From Myxococcota bacterium (lineage in GTDB: Bacteria; Myxococcota_A; UBA9160; UBA6930), in contig OZ245015.1 of NCBI GenBank assembly GCA_965223705.1, positions 1-64,000 of the forward strand: a stretch of DNA of 64,000 nt. The letters run 5' to 3'. Positions 1 to 33,262 of this stretch are shown here, one piece after another (positions within the stretch are counted from its first letter, which is position 1; each line of letters opens with the position of its first letter). The notes under the pieces are model-generated. The model saw only the letters and a program-made list of their open reading frames with translations, made no database searches and was not told where the DNA came from. The position numbers were made by a program, and so were the translations under genes.

Positions 1-568
1 CGTCACGCATCGCGCGTGACACACAAAAGTGGTCGTCTGCGAGCCGACCGAACGCGATCTCGAGCAGACGAACCCCTCTCACGACGGGGTGCCGATTCCC
101 GAGTCGAAGCGCCAGCACGGAGTCTCCGAAGTTGTGCCAATCGATGACGAAGCGCGCTCCGCGAAGGCGAGCCGCGCACCAAGCCACCGGCAGCGTGGGA
201 AGGCTCGGCGGGCTCTGAACGAGTAGGGCGTCGGGACGATCGACCCGGAAGAGCAGCAGACCGAGCAAGTGAGTTGCCTGCACGACGAACCGTAGCAGGG
301 CCACCGGGAGGTAAAGCAGGCGGGGCACGCGATCAAATACCTTCGCAGAGACAAGGGAGTGCACGCGGAGTTGCGCGTGATCTTCCGCTGCGCTGCCGAT
401 TGAAGTCTCGCGATAACCGACCAGATCCACCAGGACGCCGTTGTTCGCGAGGGCGAGCGCGTGGTACAAAATTCTGGGGCTCCGCCCTAGATCGCCGAGC
501 ACGAGCACGAGAACTCGGGAAGGCTCGCCTCGAACGTCGTCGGGCGCTGTGCGGTCGCTGGTAGACAC
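1..568 (-). CDS. ALG1-like beta-1,4-mannosyltransferase (GT33), 5' part only; runs off the left edge
   Basis: Not in the ORF track. Manual translation from GTG at 568 is stop-free to position 1: ...RVLVLVLGDLGRSPRILYHALALANNGVLVDLVGY...DALLVQSPPSLPTLPVAWCAARLRGARFVIDWHNFGDSVLALRLGNRHPVVRGVRLLEIAFGRLADDHFCVSRAMRD. It matches the ALG1 hallmark motifs LGD(V/L)GRSPR..YHA, QNPP, IDWHN, HP(L/V)V and CV(T/S).AM in the right order. Confidence 0.88.
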   Translation of the reverse strand, partial: MSTSDRTAPDDVRGEPSRVLVLVLGDLGRSPRILYHALALANNGVLVDLVGYRETSIGSAAEDHAQLRVHSLVSAKVFDRVPRLLYLPVALLRFVVQATHLLGLLLFRVDRPDALLVQSPPSLPTLPVAWCAARLRGARFVIDWHNFGDSVLALRLGNRHPVVRGVRLLEIAFGRLADDHFCVSRAMRD

Positions 569-603
569 GCGCGTAGGGTGACACGTCCGGCCGGGAGAGA
601 GTA

Positions 604-1764
604 TTGAGCTCGCATCGCCAAGAAGACCGACCGGTTCGCATCGCGATCGCGTGCGGCGGAACGGTCGGACACGTGGCGCCCTCCCTCGCGGTCGTTGAGA
701 CCTTGAAAGAGCGACAGCCCGAAGCCGATGTACTTTTTCTCGGGGCGAACATCGGTCCAGAAGCCGATCTCATCCGTAGCCGCGGACACCGTTTCGAACC
801 TTTGCCCGCGTCCGCGTTCTTCCGTGTGCCCCTGCGGCGTCGCCCCCTCGCTATGTGGAACGCATTAACCGGTGCGCGCCGCGCGCGACGACTCCTGCGA
901 GACCACGGCACGCAACTCCTCCTCGGTTTCGGCGGCTACGGCTCGGTCGGAGCCGTGCTCGCTGCGTCAAGCCTTCGCATTCCGGTCGTTCTACATGAAC
1001 TGAACGCGCAGCCCGGCCTCACGAACTGGGTGCTGGCGCGACTCGCCCGTCGCGTGCTCGGCAGCTTCAACCCGATGGTGCTCGGCGGCCGACCGGCCAC
1101 GTGCGTCGGAACGCCCGTCGAAAGCCATGTCCTCGCGAGCGGGGAGGAACGCGAGCCCCCTCAGCCGGGATCTCTCCGAGTTCTGGTGTGCGGTGGAACC
1201 GCGGGTTCCCGTTTTCTCGACGACCGCGTCCCGGAGCTCTTGGCGCGGCTCGCCCGACGGGGCATCAAGGTCCAGGTTCTTCACTCGGTCGGTTCAACGC
1301 CCGCCGAAGGACCGCGCGCGGCGTATGCGCGCGCCGGCATCGAGGCGCACCTGACGCCTTTCATCGAGCAGATGGCCGGGGCTTATGCGTGGGCCGACGT
1401 TGCCGTGGCCTGCGGCGGGGCGGCCACACTGGCCGAACTCGCATCCGCCGGGCTGCCGGCGTTGCTGGTGCCTCTCGCCGAAGCGGCGCTCGATCATCAA
1501 GCTGCAAACGTCGAACGCTTCTCCGAACGAACCGGCGCCCTGTGGACGACCGAGGCCGAATGGGATCCCGAATCCCTGGTATCGAGCTTGGAAACGCTGG
1601 CCGTGAACCCGGCCGCCTGGCTCGCGGCATCGGACGGAATGCGACGCGCCCACGATCCGCGCGCGGCTGCGAACGTCGTGGCGGCTTGCTTCGAGACGCT
1701 CGGCGCGAACGCGCGAAATGTCTCCACCTTTGAAGCGCGACGCGGTACCGAAGCTCACCCCTAA
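604..1764 (+). CDS. MurG-like glycosyltransferase (GT28), divergent, outside a dcw cluster
   Basis: GGTVGH (cf. GGTGGH), GFGGYGS, HELNAQPGLTN, GTPV, and FIEQMAGAYAWAD...GAATLAELASAGLPALLVP...DHQAAN are MurG motifs with several substitutions. Confidence 0.85.
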   Translation: MSSHRQEDRPVRIAIACGGTVGHVAPSLAVVETLKERQPEADVLFLGANIGPEADLIRSRGHRFEPLPASAFFRVPLRRRPLAMWNALTGARRARRLLRDHGTQLLLGFGGYGSVGAVLAASSLRIPVVLHELNAQPGLTNWVLARLARRVLGSFNPMVLGGRPATCVGTPVESHVLASGEEREPPQPGSLRVLVCGGTAGSRFLDDRVPELLARLARRGIKVQVLHSVGSTPAEGPRAAYARAGIEAHLTPFIEQMAGAYAWADVAVACGGAATLAELASAGLPALLVPLAEAALDHQAANVERFSERTGALWTTEAEWDPESLVSSLETLAVNPAAWLAASDGMRRAHDPRAAANVVAACFETLGANARNVSTFEARRGTEAHP

Positions 1765-1770
1765 CTCGTC

Positions 1771-4380
1771 ATGGCAGTGAATCGACTTCTCTCCTGCGTG
1801 CTCCTCGTAGCCGTGGTCGCCCTCGTCTTTTGGCTCCGCACAGCTCCTCTTTCCTTGGCGGCCGTGAACGACATGGCGGCGCATTTCGTCACGATGGAGA
1901 TCAGCGAGCGAATCGCGCGGGAAACAGAGCCCGATCCTTCTCCAGAGAAATACCGCACCGCCATCCTTCGAAACGTCGAGGAATGGTTCGAGAGCAACGA
2001 GGAGGAGTTCCGAACGAAAGTCGGCGAGCGCGCCGACTCGCTCAAGTCGCAGTTTCGCGTCACGTGGGGTGATGGCCGGAAACAAGCCTATCTCGGAGAC
2101 ACGGACAGCTATCACTGGTTGCGGGCCGCGCGCAACTACATCCGTCGGGGAACGACGTGCGACGACGTCGTCGACGACGAATGCCGAGACACCTACGGCA
2201 ATGCACCGGTGGGCCACCGGATGCTCTACAACCGCTCGGTGCACATCGCCGCCATCGTGGGCGTCGATCGCCTCGTCGACCACTTCGATCCCGAGTTCCC
2301 CCTCGTCGCCGCCGCATTCTGGGTACCCGTCATCGTCGCCGTACTCGGCGTGATTCCCGCCTTCTTCGTCGGGCGCCGATTCGCGGGAAACCTGGGCGGC
2401 CTCTTCGCCGCCGTCGTCACCTCGATTCATCCCGTGCTTCTGATGAGAAGCATCGGGAGCGACAACGATATTTGGCACGGAGTCCTACCACTGTTCGCGT
2501 TTTGGGCTGCGGTCGAAGCGCTTCGCGCGAAGCGCTTTCACCTCCTCGGGCTCGCGGCACTTGCTGGAGGTGTGGCGGGGGTCCATGCGGCGACGTGGCG
2601 TGGGGGGCTCTTCTTCTTTGTCGTGTTTCTCTCCGGCCTGCTGGCCGCGGCTGCACTCTCCTTTTTCCGCGCGATGCTCCGGAAACACGATGGCGTGCCC
2701 TGGTGGCGCAACCCCGAGGCCGGCCGGGCGCTCCTCGTAGCGGGTGCCTATGTCCTGGCCACTGTGGCGGTCGCGGGTGCCGCCGGAACCGAAGAATCTC
2801 GGTCGTTCTTCGCCGCTCCGCTGGAGTTTCTTCAAACGGACGGAGATGTGCCCGAAGCGGCGGTCGGAGACGCGCAATGGCCGAGTGTCTTCAGCACGGT
2901 GTGGGAGCTCAAGAAACCGGAGCTGTCCGACCTCGCCCCGTTTATGGGCGCCGAGATCTATTTGGCGCTCGCCGTCGCCGGCATCGTATCCGCGTTGATG
3001 ATTTCGCTTCGCGCGCCCGGCGAGAGCCGGCCGACCCTCGGTGGGACGTTGATCCTGGTGGCGTGGTTCGTCGGCGCGTTTGATCTGGCGCTGCGCGGTC
3101 AGCGCTTTTCGCTCCTGTTCGTCGTTCCGTTCGGAATAGGGCTCGCGTGCCTCGTCGGTTGGCTCTACGACACCGTCTGCCGACGACTTCCCGAGCCCCC
3201 GAGCGCGCTCGGTAAACGGCTGTTGGAATCCGGTGTCGGTGCGGTTCTCTTGCTGCTCTTGATTCCTCCCGTGATGGCCGGTCACGCGACCGCTCGGAAC
3301 TACCTGCCGCAGATCGACAACGCGTGGTGGGAGACGCTGGTCAAGATCCGGGAAGAGTCGAGCCCCGACGCCATCGTGAATTCCTGGTGGGACTACGGGT
3401 ACTGGATCAAGTATCTGGCCGAGCGACGCGTGAGCGTCGACGGCGGAACGCTCCGCACCCACGCTCATCACTGGATCGCGAAGGCCTTGCTCGCGCGCGA
3501 CGAGACCGAGGCGGTCGGCATCCTCCGCATGCTCAACTGCGGATCCGACGCCACGCCGTTTCCCGAAGGCGAGCTCGGCGCCTACGGGAAATTGATCGCA
3601 GCCGGTCAGAGCGGTGTCGACGCATACACCGCCCTCTCGACGATCGTGGTGATGGACGCGGCCGAAGCCCGCGCGCACTTGGCAGCGATCGGTTTGACGG
3701 AAGACCAACTGAGGGGCGTTCTCGGTTCGAGTCACTGCGATCCCCCCGAGTCTTTCGTGGTTCTCGACCAGTCCCTCGAGCAAAAAAGCGGTGCTTTGAT
3801 GCGTATCGGGTTGTGGGATGTCGCGACAGGCGTCGCACCGGCGTTCCCCATCCGCCCCACCGTCTGGATGCAGTGCTTCGTCGTCTCTCCGGGGTCCCTG
3901 ATCGAATGCCCGCTGGGACCGATGCGCTACGGCCCCCACCTGGGACAGACGGCGTTCTCCTACGACCCTACATCGCCTGAGACGGGGCGCATCGTTCTTC
4001 GCGCGCCTCCGGAGGAAACGGCGGCCCCGCCTCCGGAGGAAGCCGCGGCTGCGCCCGTAGCAGGTCAGACGACCCTGCTCGAGCACACCCTGCCGGCGGC
4101 CGTCCTCGTGGCAGGGGAAGATGGGCTCTCGCGTGGAACCGCGCCTGATGTTCCCCAAATCGAAGTGTTGCTAGATGCCGCGAACGGCCGCGTCTTAGTC
4201 GGCCCGCCCCACTTCGTCGGCTCGACGTTCTCGCAGCTCTTCTTTCTCGAGGGTCGCTACTCGAAACACTTCGAAGCGTTCGATCGACGAGCCACGTTCA
4301 TGGGAAATGTCGTAACCGCTTGGAAGATTCGCTGGAAGTTGGCGGAGAGGGAGGGATTCGAACCCTCGATGGGCGATTAA
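1771..4380 (+). CDS. Oligosaccharyltransferase, STT3/AglB/PglB family
   Basis: Multi-TM N-terminal half with DTDSYHW, RSIGSDND (DxD), STVWE (EL5 TIxE-like) and GQRF; C-terminal NSWWDYG and VDGGT. Confidence 0.92.
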   Translation: MAVNRLLSCVLLVAVVALVFWLRTAPLSLAAVNDMAAHFVTMEISERIARETEPDPSPEKYRTAILRNVEEWFESNEEEFRTKVGERADSLKSQFRVTWGDGRKQAYLGDTDSYHWLRAARNYIRRGTTCDDVVDDECRDTYGNAPVGHRMLYNRSVHIAAIVGVDRLVDHFDPEFPLVAAAFWVPVIVAVLGVIPAFFVGRRFAGNLGGLFAAVVTSIHPVLLMRSIGSDNDIWHGVLPLFAFWAAVEALRAKRFHLLGLAALAGGVAGVHAATWRGGLFFFVVFLSGLLAAAALSFFRAMLRKHDGVPWWRNPEAGRALLVAGAYVLATVAVAGAAGTEESRSFFAAPLEFLQTDGDVPEAAVGDAQWPSVFSTVWELKKPELSDLAPFMGAEIYLALAVAGIVSALMISLRAPGESRPTLGGTLILVAWFVGAFDLALRGQRFSLLFVVPFGIGLACLVGWLYDTVCRRLPEPPSALGKRLLESGVGAVLLLLLIPPVMAGHATARNYLPQIDNAWWETLVKIREESSPDAIVNSWWDYGYWIKYLAERRVSVDGGTLRTHAHHWIAKALLARDETEAVGILRMLNCGSDATPFPEGELGAYGKLIAAGQSGVDAYTALSTIVVMDAAEARAHLAAIGLTEDQLRGVLGSSHCDPPESFVVLDQSLEQKSGALMRIGLWDVATGVAPAFPIRPTVWMQCFVVSPGSLIECPLGPMRYGPHLGQTAFSYDPTSPETGRIVLRAPPEETAAPPPEEAAAAPVAGQTTLLEHTLPAAVLVAGEDGLSRGTAPDVPQIEVLLDAANGRVLVGPPHFVGSTFSQLFFLEGRYSKHFEAFDRRATFMGNVVTAWKIRWKLAEREGFEPSMGD

Positions 4381-4476: not shown

Positions 4477-5355
4477 TCACCCTCGCAGCAGCGATCGCAA
4501 TCCCTTTTCGAGCTCGTCCCAGCGGGTGTCGTACTGCTGTTCCACCCGTGTGACAAGGTAGGCGGTTTGCGAAACCGCCGATAGCTCGCGCGGCCCTCGC
4601 CGCTTGACGAGCCTACTTCCGGGCCGGCTCACCTCATTTCTGAGCTTTGCGACGACATCGGGGACAAACACCGCGCAATGCCCTCTGGATGCCAGCTCGA
4701 GGGCGGTCTGCAGCATCGAGAGCCGGTAGCGCACCAAGCGGGGCACGCGCTCTGGCCAACCGTCGACTGCAGGTGCCCCCGACGGCGCAGCCGCCAGCAT
4801 CGACACCGGGACGGCGAAAGGAAGCTCTCGGAACGGAGCCCCCGCGAATGCTTTCTGTCGCACGTAGATGCCGAAGTTCATTTTCGCGATCGGGCGAAAA
4901 GAAAGCTCCGTGTGGGGATAAGGCACGTACGTGAGGCCGACGTCGACGCGACGGTCGAGGACCGCGCGCTCGATCTGGCGTGTGGGCAAGTCGACGATTC
5001 GCAGCTCACCACCCAACACGCCTCGGTCGACCAACGACGCGAGGATACTCGTCGTGAAGACTTCAAAGGACGCGATCGCTTGTGGCGCTGGATGGAGCCC
5101 CTCAGAGGACAGATCTTCTCGAAGTCGCCGAAGCTCTTCGAAAATTCTCTCGCTCGAGGCGTATAGGCGATGCGCTTCGTCGGTCGGCACCAACTTCCGG
5201 CCAGCACGCACAAAAAGCCGACGATCGATCTCGGCCTCGAGCGTTCGAATCGCTTTCGAAAGCGCGCCGGGCGTCACGTGGGCGAGCCGGGCTGCTCGGG
5301 TGAGGCCACCGGTTTCCATCACCGTCCTGAAGTAGCGGAGACGTTCGAGATCCAT
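4477..5355 (-). CDS. LysR-family transcriptional regulator
   Basis: N-terminal MDLERLRYF...GLTRAARLAHVTPGALSKAIRTLEAEI...LFVR helix-turn-helix; about 292 aa. Confidence 0.9.
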   Translation of the reverse strand: MDLERLRYFRTVMETGGLTRAARLAHVTPGALSKAIRTLEAEIDRRLFVRAGRKLVPTDEAHRLYASSERIFEELRRLREDLSSEGLHPAPQAIASFEVFTTSILASLVDRGVLGGELRIVDLPTRQIERAVLDRRVDVGLTYVPYPHTELSFRPIAKMNFGIYVRQKAFAGAPFRELPFAVPVSMLAAAPSGAPAVDGWPERVPRLVRYRLSMLQTALELASRGHCAVFVPDVVAKLRNEVSRPGSRLVKRRGPRELSAVSQTAYLVTRVEQQYDTRWDELEKGLRSLLRG

Positions 5356-5379
5356 TTGTTTCCTTCGGCTCAACGATCA

Positions 5380-21327: not shown

Positions 21328-23532
21328 ATGCCGAGCCCGGAAACCCATCTCATCCTGGTCGGCGGCGGCCACGCGCACGTGCAGGTGCTGCGGCGACTCG
21401 CCATGCACCCGAACCCCAGGCTTCGGGTCACCGTCGTCCTGGATCGCCCTGAAGCCGTCTATTCCGGCATGGTTCCGGGCTTCGTCGCCGGGGACTACGC
21501 CTATCACGAGCTGGCGATCGATGTGGTTCCGCTGGCTCGGCGTGCCGGCGCGACGGTCGTGCTCGCCCCGGCACACCGAATCGACGCCGACGCTCGCCGC
21601 ATCGAGCTCGTCGGACGCCCGCCGCTCCGGTACGACCTGGCGAGTCTCGACGTCGGCTCGAGCGTGCGCGGAGCCGAACTCCCGGGAGTCGCGCAATTCG
21701 CCCTCTCGACGAGACCGATCGCCCGCTTCGTCAGCGAACTCGGTCCGCGACTCGAAGGGCACGGCGATGCGCCGTCTATCGCCGTGGTCGGCGGCGGCGC
21801 CGCGGGCGTCGAGTTGTGCTTCACCCTCGACGGACGGTTGCGTCGCGAGGGACGGAAGCCCTCGATCCGGCTTATCACCAGCGATTCGGTGTGTCTGCCG
21901 AACTACGAGTCCGCGGTCCGCGGGCGAATCGAAGAGGAAGCCCGGCGTCGGGGGATCGTGTTGACCTACAACGCTCCCGTGGCGAGCGTCACACAAGACG
22001 CGGTCGTGACGGAGGACGACCGCTTCAGTGCCGACCTGTGCGTCTGGGCGGCGGGCGCGGCGCCGACGGAATTGATCACGCGTTCTCCCCTGCCGAAAAA
22101 CGACGACGGGTTCGTCCGCGTTTCGTCCACGCTCCAGGTCGTGGGCCACCCCGAGCTCTTCGCGGTGGGCGATTGCGCGCAACTCGAAGATGCACCCTGG
22201 GTGCCCAAGGCCGGTGTGTATGCGGTGCGCCAAGGACCGTTTCTTTCGCGGAACCTCCGGGCCGCCGCCCGAGGCGGCCGGCTGCGCGCTTACCACCCAC
22301 AGCGAGATTTCCTAAGCCTCCTCCACTTGGGCGATCGCCGCGCCCTCGCTTCGAAATGGGGTCGCGTCGCGACCGGCAGGCTTGCTCTCGTTTTGAAAGA
22401 CCGGATCGATCGCCGCTTCGTCGCGCGCTTCTCGGTCGTCGATCTCAAGGGGCGGGTCACCGACGCGTTGCCTTCTCCGGAAGACATGGGGATGGAAGAA
22501 ATGGAATGCGGCGGCTGTGCGGCCAAGCTCGGCGGGGACGAATTGTCCCGCGCCTTGGGTCGGCTGCCGGTCGCGCCGCCCGATCCCACCGTCGTACAAG
22601 GGCTCGGCGACGACGCGGCCTGGGTTCGGACGCCTTCCGGGGCGACGACGCTCCACACCGTCGACGCCTTTCGCGCCTTCTGCGACGACCCGTGGCTCGT
22701 CGGGCAAGTCGCCGCGGTGAACGCGATCTCGGACATCTACGCCTGCGGCGGCAAACCGCGCCATGCCCTCGCGTGGGTGCAGCTGCCCGAACGCGAAGGG
22801 AGCGCCGCAGAGGAACGGCTGTGGCAAACCCTCCAGGGAGTCCGCGCGGCGCTCGACGCCGACGGCGTGAGCCTGATCGGCGGGCACACCACGCACGGCG
22901 ATGAGCTGGTGGTCGGCCTGTCTGTTTCGGGCGATCTCGACGGCGAGGCGCCACTCGCCAAGTCGGGTGCGACGCCCGGCGACATCCTCGTCCTCACGAA
23001 AGCACTCGGAACAGGCGTCGTGCTGGCGGGCGACATGCGGGGGCTCGCGCGGGGGATCTGGTACGAAGAGGTGACTCGCTCGATGCAGCGATCCAACGCG
23101 GAAGCAGCGGCGATCGCGAGGCGTTTTCGCGCAACCGCGTGCACCGATATCAGCGGCTTCGGATTAGCCGTCCACCTCGCCGAGATGCTCGAAGCTGGAG
23201 AAGTACGGGCCGAGCTCGACGTGGCGTCTCTTCCGGTTCTGTCCGGCGCGGCAGAGCTTCTCGAAGCCGGCGTTCGAAGCACGTTTCACCCCCAAAACGA
23301 GGCGCGAGCCATGTCGCTGGCACTCCGGCACGACGCGGATTGCCCACTTCTGTACGACCCCCAGACCTCCGGGGGATTGTTGTTTTCCGTAGCGCCGTCG
23401 CAGGTCGAACCGTGTCTCGAAGCACTTCGCGCGAGCGGCGCCACGGAAGCGCGCGCGATCGGAACCGTCACGCCCGGGCGAACCAGCGGGGCTCGCTATG
23501 ATCTCGCCTCCTCCGGAAAGGGAGCTCTATGA
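21328..23532 (+). CDS. selD: Selenide,water dikinase fused to an N-terminal FAD/pyridine nucleotide-disulfide oxidoreductase
   Basis: N-terminal LVGGGHAH, YSGMVPG, PKAGVYAVRQG; C-terminal CGGCAAK, DDAA, NAISDIYA, GGHT, TDISGFGL, DPQTSGGLL. Confidence 0.93.
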   Translation: MPSPETHLILVGGGHAHVQVLRRLAMHPNPRLRVTVVLDRPEAVYSGMVPGFVAGDYAYHELAIDVVPLARRAGATVVLAPAHRIDADARRIELVGRPPLRYDLASLDVGSSVRGAELPGVAQFALSTRPIARFVSELGPRLEGHGDAPSIAVVGGGAAGVELCFTLDGRLRREGRKPSIRLITSDSVCLPNYESAVRGRIEEEARRRGIVLTYNAPVASVTQDAVVTEDDRFSADLCVWAAGAAPTELITRSPLPKNDDGFVRVSSTLQVVGHPELFAVGDCAQLEDAPWVPKAGVYAVRQGPFLSRNLRAAARGGRLRAYHPQRDFLSLLHLGDRRALASKWGRVATGRLALVLKDRIDRRFVARFSVVDLKGRVTDALPSPEDMGMEEMECGGCAAKLGGDELSRALGRLPVAPPDPTVVQGLGDDAAWVRTPSGATTLHTVDAFRAFCDDPWLVGQVAAVNAISDIYACGGKPRHALAWVQLPEREGSAAEERLWQTLQGVRAALDADGVSLIGGHTTHGDELVVGLSVSGDLDGEAPLAKSGATPGDILVLTKALGTGVVLAGDMRGLARGIWYEEVTRSMQRSNAEAAAIARRFRATACTDISGFGLAVHLAEMLEAGEVRAELDVASLPVLSGAAELLEAGVRSTFHPQNEARAMSLALRHDADCPLLYDPQTSGGLLFSVAPSQVEPCLEALRASGATEARAIGTVTPGRTSGARYDLASSGKGAL

Positions 23533-24398: not shown

Positions 24399-25679
24399 AT
24401 GTTGGATCCGCGTGTCCTAGCCGAGCGGCGCGACGACGTGATGGAGAGCTGTCGGCGTCGCGGCATCGACGTCGACGTCGATCGTGTGATCGAACTCCAC
24501 CAGTCCGTCGCGCGCACTCAAACCGAACTCAACGAGGTCAACCGACGCCGCAAGGAGCATCAGAGCGCCGGGAAGAAGAAGCTCGAGCCGGAAGCGCGAG
24601 AAGCTCATGTCGCCGAGGGGCGCGCGATCAAGGAAACCGTTTCCCGACTCGAAGGAGAGCTCGCGCGAGCGCGCGAACAGCTCGATCAAGGGCTCGGCCA
24701 GCTGCCGAACTTCGTCCATCCTTCGGTGCCCGACGGCGGTGAGGAAGACGCGCGCGAACTGCGCCAGGTGGGAGAGCGCAAGACCTTCGACTTCGAGGCC
24801 CTCGATCATCTCGCTCTGGGTGAGCAGCTCGACTTGTTCGATTTCGAAGCCGGCGCGCGCGTCGCGGGCCAAAAGTTCTACTACTTGAAGAACGGAGCGG
24901 CGCTCCTCGAGCTCGGCCTGCAGCGCTACGCCCTGGAAATCGCGACCCGCGCGGGATACACGCCCTACGTCACGCCGGATCTCGCGCGGCCCGAGGTCGT
25001 CGCGGGTCTGGGCTTCAACCCGCGAGGCGAAGAAACCCAGATCTATTCGCTCGACAACGCGGATTTGTGCCTCGTCGGCACGGCGGAAATCACACTCGGC
25101 GGGCTCCACGCCGATTCGATCCTCGAGGAAAGCTCGTTGCCGGTCCGTATGGCGGGCGTTTCGCACTGCTTCCGGACCGAGGCGGGCGCGGCCGGTCGAG
25201 AGAGCCGCGGCCTCTACCGGGTCCATCAATTTACCAAGGTCGAGATGTTCTCGATCACGCGACCCGAAGATTCCGACGCGATGCACGAGGAGCTGTTGGC
25301 GATCGAAGAAGAGATCTTCCGCGGACTCGAGATTCCGTATCGCGTCGTCGACATCGCCGCCGGCGACTTGGGCGCCCCGGCTTATCGAAAGTTCGACCTG
25401 GAAGCGTGGATGCCGGGCCGTGGCGAGGGCGGTGCGTGGGGCGAAATCACGAGCACCTCGAACTGCACGGACTATCAATCTCGGCGCTTGCGCGTACGCT
25501 TTCGTCGCGACGCAACGCAAAAGAACGAGCTCGTACACATGCTGAACGGCACCGCGATTTCCAACGCGCGCGCCATCCTCGCCCTTCTCGAGAATCATCA
25601 GCAAGCGGACGGCACAGTCCGCATCCCCGAGGCACTCGTCCCGTATGTCGGAATCGAAGTCATCCCCCGACCGTCCTAG
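24399..25679 (+). CDS. serS: Serine--tRNA ligase
   Basis: N-terminal coiled coil, GTAE, FRTEAG...GLYRVHQFTKVE, EITSTSNCTDYQSRRL, HMLNGTA. Confidence 0.96.
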   Translation: MLDPRVLAERRDDVMESCRRRGIDVDVDRVIELHQSVARTQTELNEVNRRRKEHQSAGKKKLEPEAREAHVAEGRAIKETVSRLEGELARAREQLDQGLGQLPNFVHPSVPDGGEEDARELRQVGERKTFDFEALDHLALGEQLDLFDFEAGARVAGQKFYYLKNGAALLELGLQRYALEIATRAGYTPYVTPDLARPEVVAGLGFNPRGEETQIYSLDNADLCLVGTAEITLGGLHADSILEESSLPVRMAGVSHCFRTEAGAAGRESRGLYRVHQFTKVEMFSITRPEDSDAMHEELLAIEEEIFRGLEIPYRVVDIAAGDLGAPAYRKFDLEAWMPGRGEGGAWGEITSTSNCTDYQSRRLRVRFRRDATQKNELVHMLNGTAISNARAILALLENHQQADGTVRIPEALVPYVGIEVIPRPS

Positions 25680-27594
25680 GCTCGTCCTCGGAACCGCGGG
25701 GCACATCGATCACGGCAAGACCACGCTGGTCCACGCCCTGACCGGGGTCAACACAGACCGGCTCCCCGAAGAACAGCGGCGGGGTATCACCATCGAGCTC
25801 GGCTTCGCGCCGCTCGAACTCGGCGACGTGCAGCTCGGCGTTGTCGACGTGCCGGGGCACGAGAAGCTGGTGCGCACGATGGTGGCCGGAGCTTCCGGTA
25901 TGGACCTTGTGTTGCTCGTGGTCGCCGCGGACGAAGGCGTGATGCCTCAAACCCGCGAACACATCGCCGTCTGCGATCTTTTGGGAGTTCGCGCGGGACT
26001 CGTCGCGTTGACGAAGTGCGACATCGCCGATCCCGAGCTCGCGGATCTCGCCGAGATGGAGATCGCGGAGCTCCTCGAGGGAACCTCGCTGCGCGGGGCA
26101 CCGTGCTTTCGCGTCGCAGCGCGCGACGGCACGGGGATTCCCGAGCTGCGGAACGCGTTGGCCGAAGTCGCCCGAGCGAGCCGGACTCACACGCGGCGCG
26201 ACGGTCCGATGCGATTGTCGGTGGACCGCGTATTCTCCGCGCGCGGTTTCGGGTCCGTCGTGACCGGGACGTTGACCGGGTCCTCTGTATCCGTCGGAGA
26301 CGACGTGACGTTTCACCCGGGCGGGCCGTCGGGTCGCGTTCGGGGACTTCAATCGTTCGGCGAGAGCACGGAAACGGTTTCTCCCGGCACGCGATGCGCC
26401 ATCAACGTGCAGGGCGTCGACCGCGCTTCCGTTGCGCGCGGGATGGTGGTTGCTCACCCGGGCGAGCTGCGCGGCGTCGCGACCTTTGACGCCGAAATTC
26501 ACTGGCTCACCGAGGCTCCTGAAATTGCGAAGCCGACGGCAGTCGCCGTGTTGGCGGGCACGGCCGAACGCAACGCCAGGCTGGCCCCCCTCGGCGGCGC
26601 GGCGCTCCCACCGGGAGGGCATGGCTTCGCGCGATTCCATCTCGAGGGTGATCCCATGGTCCTCCTCCCCGAAGACCGCATCATCGTCCGCGGGTTTTCT
26701 CGAACGGAGTACGGGGGCGCGACACTCGGAGGCGGCACGGTCATCGACACGGTCCCGGCGCGCCTCCGACCGAGCGACCCCAAGCTGATCGCACAGCTCA
26801 CCCAACTGCGCGACGGAACCTTGCGGGAGACACTGTCGCTGCGAGTCGAACGCGGCGGCTATAGCGGCGTAAACGAGACCGATCTCGCCGCTGCGATCGG
26901 CCTGACGCCTGCGGAGGTCCGTCGGGAGCTCGAACTCGCGGGCGACGCGTTGTCTCGAAGCTCCCAGGGCACCTGGTTCCCGACGGCACTTCTCGATCGA
27001 TTCGGCGAGCTTTTGCGGGAGACCGTCGCCGAATTCCACCGCACCGAACCGTTGCGCCCGGGCGTTCCCCAGCAAACGCTCGCAGCGACGCTTCCCGACA
27101 ACACCGGAGAAGGCGCGTTCTCGCTCGTTCTAGACGAGCTCGTCGAGCGCGGCGCCTTGGGGATCGCAGACGGACTCGTGAGCGATCCGGAGCACTTGCC
27201 CGTGTTGTCACAGCACCAGGAGGCCATCGTCGCGCATATCCGGGCCGAAGCGATGACGCGCGAGTTCGAGCCCCCGACGTTCCGCGAGTGGCTCGATATG
27301 TTTCGGATCGAAGAGCGCGCTCTCCGCGACCTACTGGCCTACCTCGAGCGAGACGGATCGCTCACCCGCGCACCGTCGGACCTGTGGTTCGATGCTGTTG
27401 CTGTAGACGGGCTGCGCGAACGCGTGCGTTCGTTCCTACGAGAACACGGCGAGCTCGACACGCCCCAGTACAAGGAAATCATCGGCACGACGCGGAAATT
27501 CGCTGTTCCACTGATGGAACTCTTCGATTCGGAACGAATCACCGTTCGCCGCGGAGATGTCCGCGTCGCCGGGCATACCAAGACCCCGTCCTAG
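25645..27594 (+). CDS. selB: Selenocysteine-specific elongation factor
   Basis: [31 protein letters not shown]-terminal winged helix [13 protein letters not shown]. Confidence 0.95.
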
Positions 27595-29111
27595 AAGAGA
27601 AACGCGACGGACGCCTGGGTCCAATCGAGAGCGCGGAGCCAGGAGATCCACGCCATGGATCCCGCGTTGGGGAACACGCCGAGCATCACCCCAAAGAACG
27701 CGCAAACACCGAGGGCCCATCCTTCGCCCGACGCTACGCGGCGCGCATCGGGCTCCCCGAAACCGTCGTCTTTCATGAACATCAAAGCGATGACGCGGAT
27801 GTAAATGAGTCCCAGGACGACGGTCGCAAGCAGGGCGATGAGCGTCAGGAGAACGACGCCCGCATCGATGGACGACGAAAAGATCTGCAAGCGCGCGACG
27901 AAACCCGCGGTTCCCGGGGAGCCAGCCAAGCCGACCAGGAAGAAGGTCATAAACGCGGCGAGAACCGGTTGGCGATACGCCAATGCTCGGAAGTCGTCGA
28001 CCCGCAAAGCGCCCCCTTCCCGGCGCGACACAACCGCGACGACGGCCCACGCCCCGAGGCTCAGGAACGCGAAACTCAGGAGGTAGAAGAGCATCGCGCC
28101 GAATCCGGCGCGGGTCGTCGTCACCAACCCGAGCGACATGATCCCGAGATGTGCCAAGCCGAGGTAGGAAAAAAGGCGCGTGATCTGGGTCTGCAGAACG
28201 GCCATGGCGCAGCCGACGCTCATACTGAGCGCCGCGAGCGTCCACAGCACTTCCGGAAGGAGCGTGTCGCCCGCCGCGATACCGAACGCTTCGGTCGCCA
28301 AGCGCGCCAGCGCGATCAGCGCCGCGCAGCGAAACGTCACTCCGAGGTGGGTTGCGACGCTTGGCGACGCGCCCTGCTCCGCGTCGGGAGTCGACGCGTG
28401 AAACGGCGCCCATCCGATCTTGGCAGCGAACCCGCCGAGAACAAGCGCGGTGCCCAACGCCGCAACGGTTCCGGTGCCGCCTGCCAGGGCATCGCGGATG
28501 CCCGTGTAGGTCACTTGGCCGGTTGCGCCGAACAACAAGACGATTCCGAACAGGAGGATCGCGCTCGACAACGCTCCGTGGAGATAGATTTTGAGTGCGC
28601 CCTCCAACGCAGCGTTGCGGTCTTTGCCTTGCGCCACCAGGGCGTAGACAGGGAAACAAGCGAGCTCCATTCCGACGAACAGCGAAGTCAGGTGGGTCGC
28701 CGATTGAATGAGCAGCATCCCGGCGAGCGAGAGCAAAGACAAGGCAAAGAACGGCCCCGCTCTCCCGGGACGATCCGCCAAGGAGCGCACGGCTACGAGG
28801 CTTCCAAGCAGCGTGACCGCAATGGTGAGACATGCGCCGAACGTCGACAGCCGATCCACCCGGAGGAGCCTCGAGGTCGCGGAGAACGACGCGTAGCCGC
28901 CCTCACCCCACTGTTCCCACGCAAAGAGAAACGCCGTGACAAGCGCCGCGATGCTGACCGCGCCCATCAACGCCACCCGCCATGCTTCTGTGACCGTCCG
29001 CCCCAGCACCCGCTGACGATCTCGCAAGAATAGCTCCGCAATAAGAACCGCGAGGGCGCCCCCGACGACGGCCAGTACAGGCGCGATCACGTTCCATGCG
29101 ACCTCTGCCAT
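27591..29111 (-). CDS. NuoN-like antiporter subunit (divergent)
   Basis: GMEL, EGALK, AKIGWAPFH..TPD..QGA, LAG.PGTAGF. Confidence 0.8.
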   Translation of the reverse strand: MAEVAWNVIAPVLAVVGGALAVLIAELFLRDRQRVLGRTVTEAWRVALMGAVSIAALVTAFLFAWEQWGEGGYASFSATSRLLRVDRLSTFGACLTIAVTLLGSLVAVRSLADRPGRAGPFFALSLLSLAGMLLIQSATHLTSLFVGMELACFPVYALVAQGKDRNAALEGALKIYLHGALSSAILLFGIVLLFGATGQVTYTGIRDALAGGTGTVAALGTALVLGGFAAKIGWAPFHASTPDAEQGASPSVATHLGVTFRCAALIALARLATEAFGIAAGDTLLPEVLWTLAALSMSVGCAMAVLQTQITRLFSYLGLAHLGIMSLGLVTTTRAGFGAMLFYLLSFAFLSLGAWAVVAVVSRREGGALRVDDFRALAYRQPVLAAFMTFFLVGLAGSPGTAGFVARLQIFSSSIDAGVVLLTLIALLATVVLGLIYIRVIALMFMKDDGFGEPDARRVASGEGWALGVCAFFGVMLGVFPNAGSMAWISWLRALDWTQASVAFLF

Positions 29112-29113
29112 CG

Positions 29114-30694
29114 TCAGTGACACCCTTTCCAGTCGTGCTCGCGAAGAAGGTCTCTACGCGCCTTGTCTTCGATGACCGCGCACAGCTCGAGGATCGAGGG
29201 GTGGACGCGACGGAGCACGGGCTCGGGGTGGAAGCCGATCCACAGAGACGGGAGGAGGACGCCGGCGAGGAGCACGCGCTCGGCCCAACCGAAATGGAGC
29301 CCACTGACGCCGGGCGCGCGAAATGCTGCACGCCAACCGAAACGCATCAATACGACTGTGATCAGAGCGAGCCCGAAGGTCGCAGCGAGAGAGGTCTTCG
29401 GGTAGATGGGGTAGCTCGCCAAGAGCACGAGGAATTTCGAAACAAAAAGACTCGAACCGGGGAGGCCCGCCCCGACGAAGACGGCGGCGAGCAAGACGGC
29501 GACTCCCCCGTACAGAGGGATCGAGTGGGCGGGCTCGGAGGTTTCGCGTTGCAGATGTGAAGCGATCAGCGAGAGCCCGGCTGCGGCGAGACCGTAGGCA
29601 CACAGGAACAGAGCCGTGCCCTCTAAACCACCCCCGGTAAAACTGAACAAACCGATGGCTGCCAGGTGAAGCGACGCAAAACAAGCGAAAGCGATCACCC
29701 GACGCGCGTTGTCTTCCGCGAAAGCGACAATACCCCCGTAGAGGAGACCCACCGTACAGAGGAGAACGAGCGGGTAGGACCAAGCCAACACCGTGTCGGG
29801 GAAGAGCGGGAGCGCAAAGCGAAAGAAGCCGAAGGCGCCGAGAAGAGGCGCGATGGCGACCAGCAGGATCGCGGCACTGCGCGGTGCCCGGGAGCTCGCC
29901 TCGGAGAGCCAGGCGTGAGACGGAAACAAACCCATACGACTCGCGAGCGCGAGGCCGAATGCCGCGAACAGCACCGGCTGCGTCTTCCACCAAACCGCTT
30001 CGCCCCACAACGGAACCGCGAGCTCTCGCAACCCCTGCCCGGCCGCCCCGACAGGAGCGATGAAGTCGAGCGCGTGCCGCCCCTCCTCGAGCAACGGATC
30101 CGCGCCGAGCGAGGACAACACGATGATCGCGCCCAACATCGGGAGCGATCCGGCTAGCGCGACCCCCGCGAAAGGAAGTACCGCCTCCTTCGGCGCAGCT
30201 CTGCCACCCGACGCCAGCAGGAACGCAATGGGCAGGATCGACAGCTCCCAGAAGACATAGAAAAGCACCAAGTTGAGAGAACACAGCGCTCCCAACCAGG
30301 CTGTCTCGAGTGCGAGAAGGAAGAACGCTTGAAACTTGCCGCTTTCACAAATCTCGCGACGACACGCGATCCAAACCAACGGACATACCCACGAGATCAG
30401 GACGGCGATGACAAGCGCCACCCCGTCGACGCCCACCAAATAATTCGCTCCGAAGTTCGGCATCCACGGCGCGTACTCGATGAACTGGAAACTGACGTCA
30501 GCGGGCGCAAAAGCCGCCCACAACCGCAGGGAGATGACCGCGTTGACGACCGTTCCAGCGAACCCGACGAACCACCAGCCCACCATCGGAAAGGTGCGAC
30601 TGAAGAGTCCTCGCAACAGGAGCTCGACGCCGGCGAGTCCGACGGCGACGAATGCCGGCACGAAAATCAGCCAGCCCAGGGTCGCGGGAATCAC
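29114..30694 (-). CDS. NuoM-like antiporter subunit (divergent)
   Basis: W.P.FGANYLVGVDG, LFYVFWEL, FP.HAWL, GLPG; GTGA overlap with nuoL-like. Confidence 0.8.
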   Translation of the reverse strand: MIPATLGWLIFVPAFVAVGLAGVELLLRGLFSRTFPMVGWWFVGFAGTVVNAVISLRLWAAFAPADVSFQFIEYAPWMPNFGANYLVGVDGVALVIAVLISWVCPLVWIACRREICESGKFQAFFLLALETAWLGALCSLNLVLFYVFWELSILPIAFLLASGGRAAPKEAVLPFAGVALAGSLPMLGAIIVLSSLGADPLLEEGRHALDFIAPVGAAGQGLRELAVPLWGEAVWWKTQPVLFAAFGLALASRMGLFPSHAWLSEASSRAPRSAAILLVAIAPLLGAFGFFRFALPLFPDTVLAWSYPLVLLCTVGLLYGGIVAFAEDNARRVIAFACFASLHLAAIGLFSFTGGGLEGTALFLCAYGLAAAGLSLIASHLQRETSEPAHSIPLYGGVAVLLAAVFVGAGLPGSSLFVSKFLVLLASYPIYPKTSLAATFGLALITVVLMRFGWRAAFRAPGVSGLHFGWAERVLLAGVLLPSLWIGFHPEPVLRRVHPSILELCAVIEDKARRDLLREHDWKGCH

Positions 30695-32505
30695 GAGGCA
30701 CCCATGACGTACATCGCGATGGCGAGAGTCCCGAGGATCGAGAACGTGAGATACGTCTGAAACTGACCGCTGTGAAGCCGTTTGAGAAACTCTTCGCTGA
30801 TCCCCTCGAATGCGCGCGCGGAGCCACGCATGAACGTCTCCTCGAGCACGGCGCGATCGAGTGCGCGTAGCACGAAGCCGCGCGCGACGAGGCGGAGCGG
30901 GCGGAGAACGCCGTCTTTTGCCAAGCGATCGATCTGAAAATGAGCTTCGACCAGTCGCCGGAAACGTTGTACCGGCTCGGGGAGCCTCCGATTCGGCCGA
31001 CGCTCGAATAGATACGCGACGAGCGCCCCCGACGCTGCGACGGCCGTCGTGGAAACGGCGAGCCACTGACTCGACGCGGAATGAGCGGTGAGCGTGGACG
31101 GTGCCCCGAACCAACCCCCGACAACGCAAAAGACGGCAAGGCCGGCGAGCACGACGTGCTCGAGCTGACGGACGTCTTCGCGCAAAGGTTTTGCGGGGCC
31201 GGGCCCCGCAAAGGTTCTCAGGTAAGCGCGCATCAATCCGAAAGAGAGCCCCGCAACCGACAACAGCGAAACGTAATAGAGCGCCGAGCGCTCCGAGTAC
31301 GCAGCGGCGAGTAAGGAACCGCGCGACGAAAAACCGATCAGAAACGGGAAGCCCGCCGCGGCGAGGAAGCCGACGACGCAGTAGCGGTGGACCCGCGGCA
31401 GTCCGCGGCGCAAGCCGCCGACTGCTTCGAAGGAGGTACTTCCTTTTGTCGCGATCGAGATGGCCCGAGCGGAGAGGAACAGGAGAAGGAAGAACACGGA
31501 AAAGCCCGCAACGTGATGGAGTGCGGCCGCCACCGCACCGCTCGCGACCCCGACGAGCATCCATCCCAAATGGGTGCGGGTTGCCGTGACAAACACGCGA
31601 TCGATTTCGCGCACCACGGCTCCGACAAGCGCGGAATAAAGCGCCAGAAGTGCGCCGAACCACGCGAGCCAGACTGCCGCCGCGTCGACGTGCGCAAGGA
31701 CAGCGCTGAACCGAGCGAGGGGAAGCAATGTGCCGACGCCCGCGACAGCGATCATGAGAAATACCGTGCCGGCGATCGGGAGCGGCTTGTTCGGCGCCAG
31801 CCACACCAGCGAAGCTCGAATTGCCGCAGCGGCGGCAATGGCAAAGGCCGCACCGGTCACTCCTGGTTGGGCGGGAGCAAAACCCGAGTCAAAACGTGAC
31901 CAGAGCAGGGATTGGTGAGCTTCGGAAGCAAGAGCCGAAGACAACAAGAATGCCGCTACCAGGAGCATCACATCGGACAGTCCAAGCCAAGCCAAGGCCC
32001 TTGTTCCGGAACCTCCTTCCGAACCGATCCAGAGGAGGGCGAAGACACCGGCCGCCACCCAACCGACGTAGGCGACCATGACGTCGGCCGCGAGGATCAA
32101 CAAGAGAACCGCGGACGTTTCCGCCAGAACGAAAAGCGTCAGGCGGCGCCCCTGATCTCCGGGCAACGTGCGTGCCGCGAAGCAGCTGACGACCGCCGCC
32201 GACGCCAGCGCGAGCGACGTAAGGCCCGCGACCGGATCGAAACGCAGACTCATCTCGGCAGAGAAGCGGACCGATTCGAACCACGTAAAGAGAGGTGGGT
32301 CGTGCACGATCCGCTCTCCGGGGAGCGAGAACGTCAAGTACCAACCCGCTAGAGCGAGGATCCCGAAGACGCCTCCGGAAACCGCGACTCCGAAGTGAGC
32401 GGCGTAAGCTTTGCTCACGACGGGTTGCTTCCCGGCGACTCCCAACGCCCCGACGAACGGCAATACAATCGCAACGTAGAGGAGGACGAACTCAGAACCT
32501 ACCAT
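30691..32505 (-). CDS. NuoL-like antiporter subunit (highly divergent)
   Basis: LFTWF...LRFDP, GGLRRGLP, AAAGFP..GFSSR, C-terminal HSGQFQTY. Confidence 0.75.
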   Translation of the reverse strand: MVGSEFVLLYVAIVLPFVGALGVAGKQPVVSKAYAAHFGVAVSGGVFGILALAGWYLTFSLPGERIVHDPPLFTWFESVRFSAEMSLRFDPVAGLTSLALASAAVVSCFAARTLPGDQGRRLTLFVLAETSAVLLLILAADVMVAYVGWVAAGVFALLWIGSEGGSGTRALAWLGLSDVMLLVAAFLLSSALASEAHQSLLWSRFDSGFAPAQPGVTGAAFAIAAAAAIRASLVWLAPNKPLPIAGTVFLMIAVAGVGTLLPLARFSAVLAHVDAAAVWLAWFGALLALYSALVGAVVREIDRVFVTATRTHLGWMLVGVASGAVAAALHHVAGFSVFFLLLFLSARAISIATKGSTSFEAVGGLRRGLPRVHRYCVVGFLAAAGFPFLIGFSSRGSLLAAAYSERSALYYVSLLSVAGLSFGLMRAYLRTFAGPGPAKPLREDVRQLEHVVLAGLAVFCVVGGWFGAPSTLTAHSASSQWLAVSTTAVAASGALVAYLFERRPNRRLPEPVQRFRRLVEAHFQIDRLAKDGVLRPLRLVARGFVLRALDRAVLEETFMRGSARAFEGISEEFLKRLHSGQFQTYLTFSILGTLAIAMYVMGAS

Positions 32506-32801
32506 CGCAAACGACTCGCGGATTCGAGATCGGCAGAGCCGCGCGCGCGAACCCACGCCGCGATCAGAGCCGTCGCCACGGGAAGTTCGAGCACCGCGAT
32601 CACGACGACCAGAGTGGCCAAGCCGAGAGAAGAACCGGAGCTCTCCCAACGAGAGGCGTAGCCGACGAGAGCCAGAACGATTCCACCCGTTGTCAACTGG
32701 ACCGACATCCATGCGATCCAGACGTTGCGCCGGAGCAGTGCTCCCCCGATCCCGAGTCCGATCAGCAAGGCTGCGACGGCCAACGTGTGAGAAAGAGGCA
32801 C
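32499..32801 (-). CDS. NuoK-like subunit
   Basis: About 100 aa, 3 TM; IGGALLRRN, AVLE, ends SRLRW. Confidence 0.75.
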   Translation of the reverse strand: MPLSHTLAVAALLIGLGIGGALLRRNVWIAWMSVQLTTGGIVLALVGYASRWESSGSSLGLATLVVVIAVLELPVATALIAAWVRARGSADLESASRLRW

Positions 32802-33262
32802 TACGAATCCCGTCGCGCGCTGTCTTGCAGCGCGCTGACGGCGACGAAGGCCGCAGTGACCAGACAGGAACAAGCTCCGAGGGCGAGAAGGAGATCGCTA
32901 TCGAGGACCGGGTCGGACCTGCCCCGGCTCGGAGCGCGCAGTGCGATGCCCACGACCGCGGCGGTCCCGAACGCCACGACCCCGGCGCCGATCGCCCGGG
33001 CGACGCGTCGCCCGGGCCGCGCTCTCGGCGCGACCTCCTCGGCACCGATCGTGGCGACCATCAGGAGGAGACAAGCGCAGGAGTACGCGACGAGATGGAC
33101 AACGCCCACAAGTGCTGCGCCCGACAAGAGATACAAGCCCGCGAGCGCGACCATCGAGAGCCACAGGCGGGATGCGGCGCGCGCGGGGCTCTGCGCGAGA
33201 ACGACTCCGACGCCGCCCAACAACGCAGCCGCTGCGAGCCCGTAGGGCAGCCACGCCATCAT
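32801..33262 (-). CDS. NuoJ-like subunit (divergent)
   Basis: Hydrophobic; LAGLYLLSGA.LVGVVHLVAY resembles NuoJ TM2-3; lies between H-like and K-like genes. Confidence 0.65.
   Translation of the reverse strand: MMAWLPYGLAAAALLGGVGVVLAQSPARAASRLWLSMVALAGLYLLSGAALVGVVHLVAYSCACLLLMVATIGAEEVAPRARPGRRVARAIGAGVVAFGTAAVVGIALRAPSRGRSDPVLDSDLLLALGACSCLVTAAFVAVSALQDSARRDS

Follow-up and report, generated by a model that had tools for sequence, protein, structure and literature searches.

Can a bacterium build the core of the eukaryotic N-glycan and attach it to its own exported proteins? This question is raised by the first 64,000 bases of contig OZ245015.1 (C1) of a Myxococcota bacterium (assembly GCA_965223705.1); this whole stretch, C1:1-64000, is called the window below. 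At its left edge, an ALG1-like glycosyltransferase gene, a MurG-like gene of family GT28 and an oligosaccharyltransferase (OST) gene of the STT3/AglB/PglB family stand side by side. An earlier note on this DNA read them as a candidate eukaryote-type N-glycan core system in a bacterium, and this reading is supported as far as sequence analysis goes. The gene set is met with again in many soil bacteria. The locus is probably one instance of a recurrent bacterial N-glycosylation cluster, in which a eukaryote-like core would be built on undecaprenyl pyrophosphate and moved to asparagine residues of exported proteins. Lipid-linked N-glycosylation by OSTs of the STT3 family is known in all three domains.

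Layout of the cluster

The genome is assembled in two contigs (95% complete, ~65% GC), and C1, with 4,542,233 bases, is circular. The features considered are listed below; L006 denotes the last 20 kb of C1.

Window 1..568, minus strand: ALG1-like GT-B glycosyltransferase, N-terminal half (189 aa; the open reading frame (ORF) 2..568 runs off the window start).
C1:4541525-4542232 (L006:19292-19999), minus strand: ALG1-like glycosyltransferase, C-terminal half (235 aa; Pfam Glycos_transf_1).
Window 604..1764, plus strand: GT28 enzyme, MurG paralogue (386 aa; Pfam GT28 N and C domains).
Window 1771..4380, plus strand: single-subunit oligosaccharyltransferase of the STT3/AglB/PglB family (869 aa; Pfam STT3 and STT3-PglB_core).
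C1:4539648-4541528 (L006:17415-19295), minus strand: MsbA/PglK-like ABC exporter (626 aa; ABC_membrane and ABC_tran).
C1:4538490-4539644 (L006:16257-17411), plus strand: second GT4 enzyme, GT4b, convergent (EX7E motif).
Window 4477..5373, minus strand: LysR regulator, the next gene past STT3, with fatty-acid metabolism genes beyond.

The ORF listing and Pfam confirm the three adjacent genes described in the earlier note, and the ORF listing confirms that the STT3 ATG lies 6 nt past the GT28 stop. The note had suggested looking to the left of the window for the rest of ALG1, and the C-terminal half was found at the far contig end with the remaining cluster genes. The chromosome thus closes into a circle, and the five-gene cluster spans the arbitrary contig start. 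The ALG1-like and exporter genes share a strand, the stop of the former and the ATG of the latter overlapping as ATGA. On the STT3 side, the LysR gene followed by fatty-acid metabolism genes sets the cluster boundary at 4380.

Conservation of the gene set

Conservation was followed in two samples. For the STT3-anchored sample, one genome per species was scanned with the STT3 alignment. The nearest STT3 relatives were found in metagenome-assembled genomes (MAGs) labelled Deltaproteobacteria (L013), Binataceae/Binatia (L014, L015, L019), Verrucomicrobiia (L016) and others, followed by archaea. The ALG1-like, GT28 and STT3 genes were clustered in three of the four related bacterial STT3 loci that had at least 5 kb on both sides:

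L013 (genome G041): GT2, WecA-like, STT3, GT28, ALG1-like, ABC exporter, GT4b, then tig-clpP-clpX-lon.
L016 (genome G043): WecA-like, STT3, GT28, ALG1-like, ABC exporter, then tig-clpP-clpX.
L014 (genome G042): STT3, GT28 (split over two frames), ALG1-like, half a GT4 with a GVGGAER loop, ABC exporter, GT4b.

In L017, L018 and L023 the cluster genes were not found on the sides visible. The genomes of L015, L017 and L019 do carry an ALG1-like gene at another position, whereas a search of those of L018 and L023 (the latter only 1.5 Mb) found none. Seven of the nine genomes with the window-type STT3 also carry an ALG1-like gene, and since G041 and G043 look closely related, the seven cases are not all independent. 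In L016, a gene for a radical-SAM/SPASM-cupin fusion (L016:10871-12739, plus strand) separates GT28 from the ALG1-like gene; its product might serve as an accessory enzyme that modifies a glycan or a peptide.

For the ALG1-anchored sample, the ALG1-like gene was the sole criterion in choosing metagenome loci; of 541 confirmed relatives the best 80 were retained, and partners were sought by tblastn. Partners beside the ALG1-like gene were counted over all 80 loci and over the 15 that have 5 kb or more on each side:

STT3: 30 of 80; 9 of 15.
GT28: 45 of 80; 10 of 15.
ABC exporter: 27 of 80; 11 of 15.
GT4b: 17 of 80; 5 of 15.
WecA-like: 26 of 80; 8 of 15.

Most metagenome contigs are short, and the counts over all 80 are therefore lower bounds. 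All nine long-flank loci with STT3 also had GT28; of the 54 ALG1-like loci whose contig extends far enough on the relevant side, 33 had GT28 next door. Sixteen of the 19 weak STT3 tblastn matches beside ALG1-like genes were checked by Pfam, and every one proved to be of the STT3/AglB family: 15 matched PF02516 (12 of these also AglB_core-like), and L189 matched AglB_L1 and AglB_core-like. This variety of Pfam matches implies at least two or three OST lineages beside ALG1-like genes. By these synteny counts, the adjacency of the ALG1-like, GT28 and STT3 genes is far beyond chance. The earlier note had named a lack of co-location in relatives as fatal to its proposal; the genes were co-located in most of the long-flank loci of both samples.

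Within the lineage of the window genome, the 40 nearest genomes yielded no window-type STT3 and an ALG1-like gene in one genome. The cluster is therefore sporadic here, which fits transfer or loss. Genome G017, from the window's own family, carries ALG1-like, ABC exporter and GT4b genes beside a different STT3. This divergent STT3 (L099:13374-16058, plus strand; G017:C12) carries the archaeal domain AglB_L1 and is encoded after this three-gene module. The product of the next gene (L099:16138-19901, plus strand), 1254 aa long, has a subtilase domain at its C terminus and could be a glycoprotein substrate or a partner.

The oligosaccharyltransferase

The product of 1771..4380 matched PF02516 (STT3; 1.3e-23, 84.7 bits against a cut-off of 24.5) and PF21436 (STT3-PglB_core; 4.1e-9, 37.5 bits against a cut-off of 23). 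Its sequence matches were Pyrococcus AglB (2zag, 2.5e-8), eukaryotic STT3B (1.3e-4) and, weakly, C. lari PglB (5ogl, 0.0099). With NCBIfam, archaeo_STT3 gave 6.5e-15 and PglB 2.9e-6, both far under the cut-off. The protein has few relatives; a word-index search of 5.8 billion proteins found only 11, with no more than 53% identity.

From the structures of PglB, AglB and STT3, the roles are known of the first aspartate in external loop 1 (EL1), of the DxD/DxE motif past transmembrane helix 3, of the glutamate in the TIxE/SVSE motif of EL5 and of WWDYG, which binds the +2 Ser/Thr of the sequon in solved OSTs. In an alignment of the window protein with its 11 relatives, LGD110xD112SY, GSD231ND233, TVWE379 and W539WDYG543 were invariant or nearly so. 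WWDYGYW was aligned to Pyrococcus AglB and human STT3A, and GSDND (DND) was aligned by profile search to the SYDNE (DNE) motif of human STT3A. A two-helix insert of ~46 residues, present in 10 of the 11 relatives, is absent from the window protein. The AlphaFold model (pLDDT 78.8, pTM 0.77) has four helices past the EL5 segment and a beta-rich C-terminal domain. Foldseek ranks 1-19 were all PglB, STT3 or AglB, headed by PglB 6gxc (E 9.1e-18, TM 0.64 by target). Thus, a Pfam match above the gathering score, the acidic and WWDYG motifs and a GT-C fold with a membrane domain of many passes and a periplasmic C-terminal domain come together in this protein, and its designation as an oligosaccharyltransferase in the earlier note holds.

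STT3-family proteins were found by Pfam search in 24 of 41 genomes (G000-G040, including G000), often several and up to four per genome; the control set gave matches in its four archaea only. Such a frequency in this order is unusual for bacteria. The conclusion that OSTs are absent from the 40 relatives, drawn from two weak matches of the window STT3, was overturned by this family search.

The ALG1-like glycosyltransferase

The N-terminal half of the ALG1-like protein matched Pfam Glyco_trans_4_4 (4.4e-10), and the C-terminal half matched Glycos_transf_1 (9.1e-7). Against the family profile, the former covered model positions 2-187 (E 3.8e-93) and the latter 195-428 (E 1.1e-109). The halves are 45-53% identical to the intact orthologues of L013, L014 and L016; in a comparison with the Binataceae orthologue of L014, 44-46% identity to the halves of the window protein was obtained. 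The profile found 3,487 proteins among 8,000 scored candidates, and many family members among the matches listed carry the JGI label 'beta-1,4-mannosyltransferase'. The nearest protein-atlas clusters of the L014 orthologue include mainly or wholly eukaryotic ones, which is a lead and not an alignment; four of them, at 0.98, bear the name 'Chitobiosyldiphosphodolichol beta-mannosyltransferase' and are each composed of Eukaryota to 98-100%. Sequence searches of the PDB with the L013 orthologue and with profile A2 returned no glycosyltransferase match and no solved ALG1 structure.

The identity of this enzyme is also illuminated by recent work on other bacteria. Lombard (2016; PMC4973528), in the text available, found no relatives of Alg1 among prokaryotes and described its origin as unknown; the enzyme had long been regarded as a eukaryotic invention. 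Xu et al. (2025; bioRxiv 10.1101/2025.10.15.682550) have since listed 204 bacterial ALG1 homologues, with BLASTp E-values from 6e-22 to 1e-104 against human ALG1. In the accessible part of this preprint, homologues from a gammaproteobacterium, Polyangia and Binatia are reported to complement yeast alg1 and to make Man1GlcNAc2 from GlcNAc2-PP-phytanyl. The bacterial ALG1 and ALG2 proteins described there are of the same family as the window protein, and the Binatia are represented here by the Binataceae orthologue of L014. The JGI names, the atlas neighbours of L014 and the 204 homologues all give indirect backing to the label of ALG1 homologue that the earlier note gave to this gene.

The MurG paralogue

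The GT28 protein has both Pfam domains of its family (1.9e-28 and 1e-27) and matches E. coli MurG (1f0k) at 5.1e-44. The GGTVGH sequence (GGxxGH loop) and the GGY loop, motifs whose roles are described in the available text of PMC8993221, are both kept. Its NCBIfam murG (TIGR01133) score of 227.5 bits is under the equivalog cut-off of 250.25. A stronger GT28 match in the genome at C1:3854804 adjoins MraY at C1:3851525 and is therefore the MurG of the dcw cluster; it lies 3.85 Mb from the window gene, and the two proteins are 35% identical. Thus, neither the equivalog score nor a dcw location, by which a MurG is recognised, was found for the GT28 of the cluster. The earlier note had called it a non-dcw gene and had held that its reading would fall if this were the only MurG of the genome, acting on lipid I; it is not the only one.

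Genomes G041, G042 and G043 have exactly two GT28 genes each. In a maximum-likelihood tree, the cluster-linked GT28s (window, G041, G043, G042) formed one clade with support 100/99, and the complementary group held five other MurGs, namely the dcw copy of the window genome, the G017 sequence and the remaining copy from each of G041, G042 and G043. This tree has nine rows, with the frame-split G042 copy represented by its C-terminal part alone, and lacks an outgroup; it therefore gives a split and not a root. The split G042 gene (L014:12940-14026, minus strand; G042:C4) runs over two reading frames, either from an error in the MAG or as a pseudogene.

Judged by score, location and phylogeny, the GT28 enzyme is a MurG-family paralogue and not the housekeeping MurG. 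The activity proposed for it is that of a UDP-GlcNAc:GlcNAc-PP-undecaprenol beta-1,4-GlcNAc transferase (chitobiose synthase). This step is the mechanistically weakest link. In its favour are the separate GT28 clade and the close divergent arrangement of this gene with the ALG1-like one, as ALG1 needs a GlcNAc2 acceptor.

Exporter, second GT4 enzyme and sugar supply

The earlier note had proposed to look beyond the window for a flippase, a further GT4, an Alg7/WecA-like starter and genes for GDP-mannose. An ABC flippase candidate and an additional GT4 were found at the contig end; Alg7/WecA in the cluster and an ALG2-like gene in the genome were not. The exporter matched the NCBIfam models MsbA (2.8e-85) and PglK (3.7e-69), in both cases under the equivalog cut-off, and it stands beside the ALG1-like gene in L013, L014, L016 and L099. 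Its domains, similarity and location are those of an MsbA/PglK-type flippase of lipid-linked oligosaccharides, and a flipping role is putatively assigned to it.

The GT4b protein has an EX7E motif of the form EHFGIGPAE and a PPGGGGAV loop. Its sole PDB sequence match was 2f9f, 'first mannosyl transferase (wbaZ-1)', at 5.1e-4. According to the available text of the preprint (bioRxiv 10.1101/2025.10.15.682550), the ALG2 signature comprises a GIGGAER loop and the EX7E motif EHFGIVPLE. Many related loci have an ALG2-type gene with G[IVL]GG[AS]ER, mostly directly after the ALG1-like gene, and in ten cases EHFG[IL]VP[LV]E occurs in the same ORF; such a gene was also not found in the L013 and L016 loci. 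The assignment of GT4b as ALG2 or ALG11 was rejected as unproven on account of its generic names, its bacterial and archaeal neighbours and the deviating motifs. With no ALG2-like gene in the genome, the predicted product is only Man1GlcNAc2 plus whatever GT4b adds.

The starter enzyme could be encoded at C1:1061178-1062284, where a protein matches the WecA model (1.2e-43, under the cut-off) and shares 37-39% identity with the WecA-like proteins that L013 and L016 encode within their clusters. This gene belongs to an exopolysaccharide (EPS)-type cluster, and its product could serve both pathways. The GDP-mannose genes that the earlier note expected are likewise represented outside the N-glycosylation cluster; a ManC-like gene and gmd were found near the WecA-like gene at 1.06 Mb, and they point to a GDP-mannose supply in this genome.

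Proposed pathway

The pathway would start with the WecA-like GlcNAc-1-P transferase (encoded within the cluster in relatives), which would form GlcNAc-PP-undecaprenol (GlcNAc-PP-Und). The MurG paralogue encoded at 604-1764 would then add a beta-1,4-GlcNAc to give GlcNAc2-PP-Und, as its homology, own clade and synteny suggest. The ALG1-like enzyme is predicted to add beta-1,4-mannose from GDP-mannose, forming Man-beta1,4-GlcNAc2-PP-Und, a step backed by the in vitro assays of homologues from other bacteria. GT4b might add one or more further sugars, possibly alpha-mannose. The ABC exporter would flip the lipid-linked glycan to the periplasmic face, and the STT3/AglB-type enzyme, with its intact catalytic and WWDYG motifs and its fold, would move the glycan to asparagine in N-x-S/T.

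Counter-evidence and alternative readings

A number of observations weigh against this pathway. On the enzyme side, the accessible part of the preprint (bioRxiv 10.1101/2025.10.15.682550) lists two inactive proteins among five bacterial ALG1 homologues assayed, one deltaproteobacterial and one from the Methylomirabilota. GT4b has generic names only, and its nearest atlas clusters are bacterial and archaeal, none being named ALG2 or ALG11. No ORF of at least 250 aa with the ALG2 motifs (GIGGAER and EHFGIVPLE) was found anywhere in the genome. The cluster of the window genome has no Alg7/WecA-like gene; the single non-MraY WecA-like gene is 1.06 Mb into C1, in the EPS-type cluster with a tyrosine kinase and gmd. 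On the side of synteny, the STT3 gene of L019 lacks the other cluster genes within 10 kb on both sides, and five of the 15 long-flank ALG1-like loci (L165, L178, L184, L185 and L195) have neither STT3 nor GT28. In G017 the module occurs without a second strong GT28 in the genome. A search of the 40 nearest relatives did not find the window-type STT3 and gave only two weak matches near 1e-4. Finally, the assembly puts the two halves of the ALG1-like gene out of frame by one base where the contig ends meet; two bases are left over, and in-frame continuation past the junction meets a stop after 86 further codons. By its gene content, the window instance is a reduced form of the cluster, without ALG2, without WecA in the cluster and with a frame break at the junction.

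The best surviving alternative, which is nevertheless unlikely, is that the cluster builds a non-protein envelope glycoconjugate (surface polysaccharide, glycolipid or a product like lipopolysaccharide (LPS)), in which STT3 would ligate or polymerise glycans on an acceptor other than protein. It would account for the placing of the genome's only WecA-like gene in an EPS-type cluster and for the five long-flank loci in which the ALG1-like/ABC module occurs without STT3. The related STT3 of L019 stands beside LPS-core genes (heptosyltransferase, Kdo kinase and Kdo transferase), and the large number of STT3-family genes in the order hints at varied roles. However, WWDYG, the element that binds the +2 Ser/Thr of the sequon in solved OSTs, is invariant or nearly so in the window protein and its relatives, and so are the two DxD motifs and the glutamate. 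The best structural matches are all protein OSTs, and the GlcNAc2-Man logic fits N-glycan cores.

Slightly less likely again is that the cluster of the window genome is a decaying remnant of recent acquisition, whose ALG1-like gene is truly frameshifted, so that no glycan is made. The frame break as assembled would agree with this, as would the failure to find the window-type STT3 in the 40 relatives and the lack of the WecA and ALG2-like genes that many related clusters have. However, the break coincides exactly with the point at which the circular contig was arbitrarily opened. C1 ends (C1:4542232-4542233, L006:19999-20000) with the same two bases, 'cg', with which it begins, and removal of one copy yields a single open ALG1-like frame of 424 aa, which aligns end to end with the intact orthologues. 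Across the junction joined in this way, 12 residues separate the SRAM and VLYD blocks, against 14 in L014. A search for contig-end overlaps of 10-2000 bases found none, the identity being limited to these two bases. The frame break is likely an artefact of circularisation, a duplicated 'cg'. The remaining genes of the cluster are all intact and keep their conserved motifs, and the stop of the ALG1-like gene is translationally coupled to the exporter start; both points likewise speak against decay. At this junction, annotation pipelines would call two fragments or a pseudogene.

The reading of GT28 as a second peptidoglycan MurG, a developmental or stress isoform acting on lipid I whose place beside STT3 is meaningless, draws on its close homology to MurG and its kept G-loop motifs and is very improbable in view of the sub-equivalog score, the clade shared with GT28s of the same cluster in other phyla apart from the other MurGs of those genomes, and the 33 of 54 loci with GT28 next to the ALG1-like gene.

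The N-glycosylation reading can be widened. In several phyla, N-glycosylation of exported proteins with the eukaryotic Man(1-3)GlcNAc2 core may be a native trait, conferred by a portable cluster that would build this core on undecaprenol and would comprise a WecA-like starter, a MurG-derived chitobiose synthase, ALG1, often ALG2, an ABC flippase and an AglB/STT3-type OST. Such a cluster, and not single genes, could be the bacterial source of eukaryotic ALG1 and ALG2. This wider proposal is tentative and stands a little short of an even chance.

Other features of the window

An ORF of 734 aa at 21328-23532 (plus strand) combines a pyridine-nucleotide-disulfide oxidoreductase domain with AIRS/AIRS_C (SelD-like), and SelB is encoded nearby at 25645-27594; the region therefore looks like a selenium-utilisation neighbourhood with a fused SelD. 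At 27591-33045 (minus strand) there are three long Proton_antipo_M ORFs (Mrp/Nuo antiporter-like subunits), two of which overlap in different frames. The AT skew is strong in the same region, at 0.33-0.38 over 28-34 kb.

Significance and comparison with known systems

The locus, together with dozens like it in metagenomes, bears on the origin of ALG1, as it provides the bacterial homologues with a native context, a complete-looking N-glycosylation cluster. In the text available, Xu et al. (2025) showed active bacterial ALG1 homologues and not their role in bacteria. A bacterial origin of the eukaryotic N-glycan core and of part of its machinery is now testable. For glyco-engineering, the cluster may offer compact, undecaprenol-based bacterial parts for eukaryote-type core glycans (chitobiose synthase, ALG1, flippase and OST), the single-subunit OST presumably accepting GlcNAc2-based glycans.

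Literature searches, with most subscription journals outside their scope, returned no paper in which a single bacterial cluster unites a MurG-derived paralogue, an ALG1 orthologue and an archaeal/eukaryotic-type OST, and none that describes the cluster seen here. In the accessible part of the closest work (Xu et al., 2025), the enzymes are treated singly and as phylogenetic markers, the terms STT3 and 'operon' do not occur, gene neighbourhoods are not treated, and 'cluster' refers to clades of trees. Nor does that part connect the enzymes with an OST, with a MurG paralogue or with a flippase, as is seen here.

The eukaryotic cytosolic pathway of lipid-linked oligosaccharide (LLO) synthesis (Alg7, Alg13/14, Alg1, Alg2 and Alg11) and its OST (STT3) follow the same order of chemistry as that proposed here, i.e., a HexNAc-1-P transferase, a MurG-fold GlcNAc transferase, an ALG1-family beta-mannosyltransferase, one or more EX7E GT4 enzymes, flipping and transfer by STT3. 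The ALG1-like protein is probably a homologue of ALG1, and the STT3 keeps the DxD, DNE-like, (S/T)VxE and WWDYG motifs. Eukaryotes use the split Alg13/14 for the second GlcNAc, whereas the corresponding enzyme here would be a fused MurG-derived paralogue. In addition, the carrier is presumably undecaprenol, the flippase an ABC exporter and the OST a single subunit. The window genome has neither ALG2 nor lumenal enzymes of the ALG3/9/12 type, and, unlike eukaryotic ALG1, its ALG1-like protein is without an obvious N-terminal membrane anchor.

With the pgl system of Campylobacter jejuni and C. lari (PglB, PglK, PglC, PglA/H/I/J and PglDEF), the locus shares the organisation as a bacterial cluster, a single-subunit OST of the STT3 family, an ABC flippase for the LLO and cytoplasmic glycosyltransferases acting on undecaprenyl-PP; PglB is also the best structural match of the OST model. 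Unlike pgl, it has no bacillosamine genes and no PglC-type starter and would instead employ a starter of the WecA type, a MurG paralogue and an ALG1-like enzyme. By sequence, the window OST is closer to archaeal AglB and eukaryotic STT3 than to C. lari PglB. Bacterial single-subunit OSTs outside Campylobacterota are also known from Desulfovibrio (for example D. marinus and D. gigas), some with relaxed, eukaryote-like sequons (PMC12229607). In the available text of that source, they belong to the PglB lineage, were studied with heterologous glycans and are not linked to ALG1-like or MurG-paralogue genes.

In the crenarchaeal AglH/Agl24/AglB system of Sulfolobus acidocaldarius, whose N-glycans have a chitobiose core, as far as the accessible text of PMC8993221 describes it, a prokaryote likewise makes lipid-linked GlcNAc2 with a fused enzyme of the MurG/Alg14-13 fold bearing a GGH loop, and AglB performs the transfer. 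Agl24 stands on the Alg13/14/EpsEF side, whereas the window GT28 stands on the bacterial MurG side, and the carrier lipid differs. According to the available part of the preprint (bioRxiv 10.1101/2025.10.15.682550), archaea are without ALG1 homologues.

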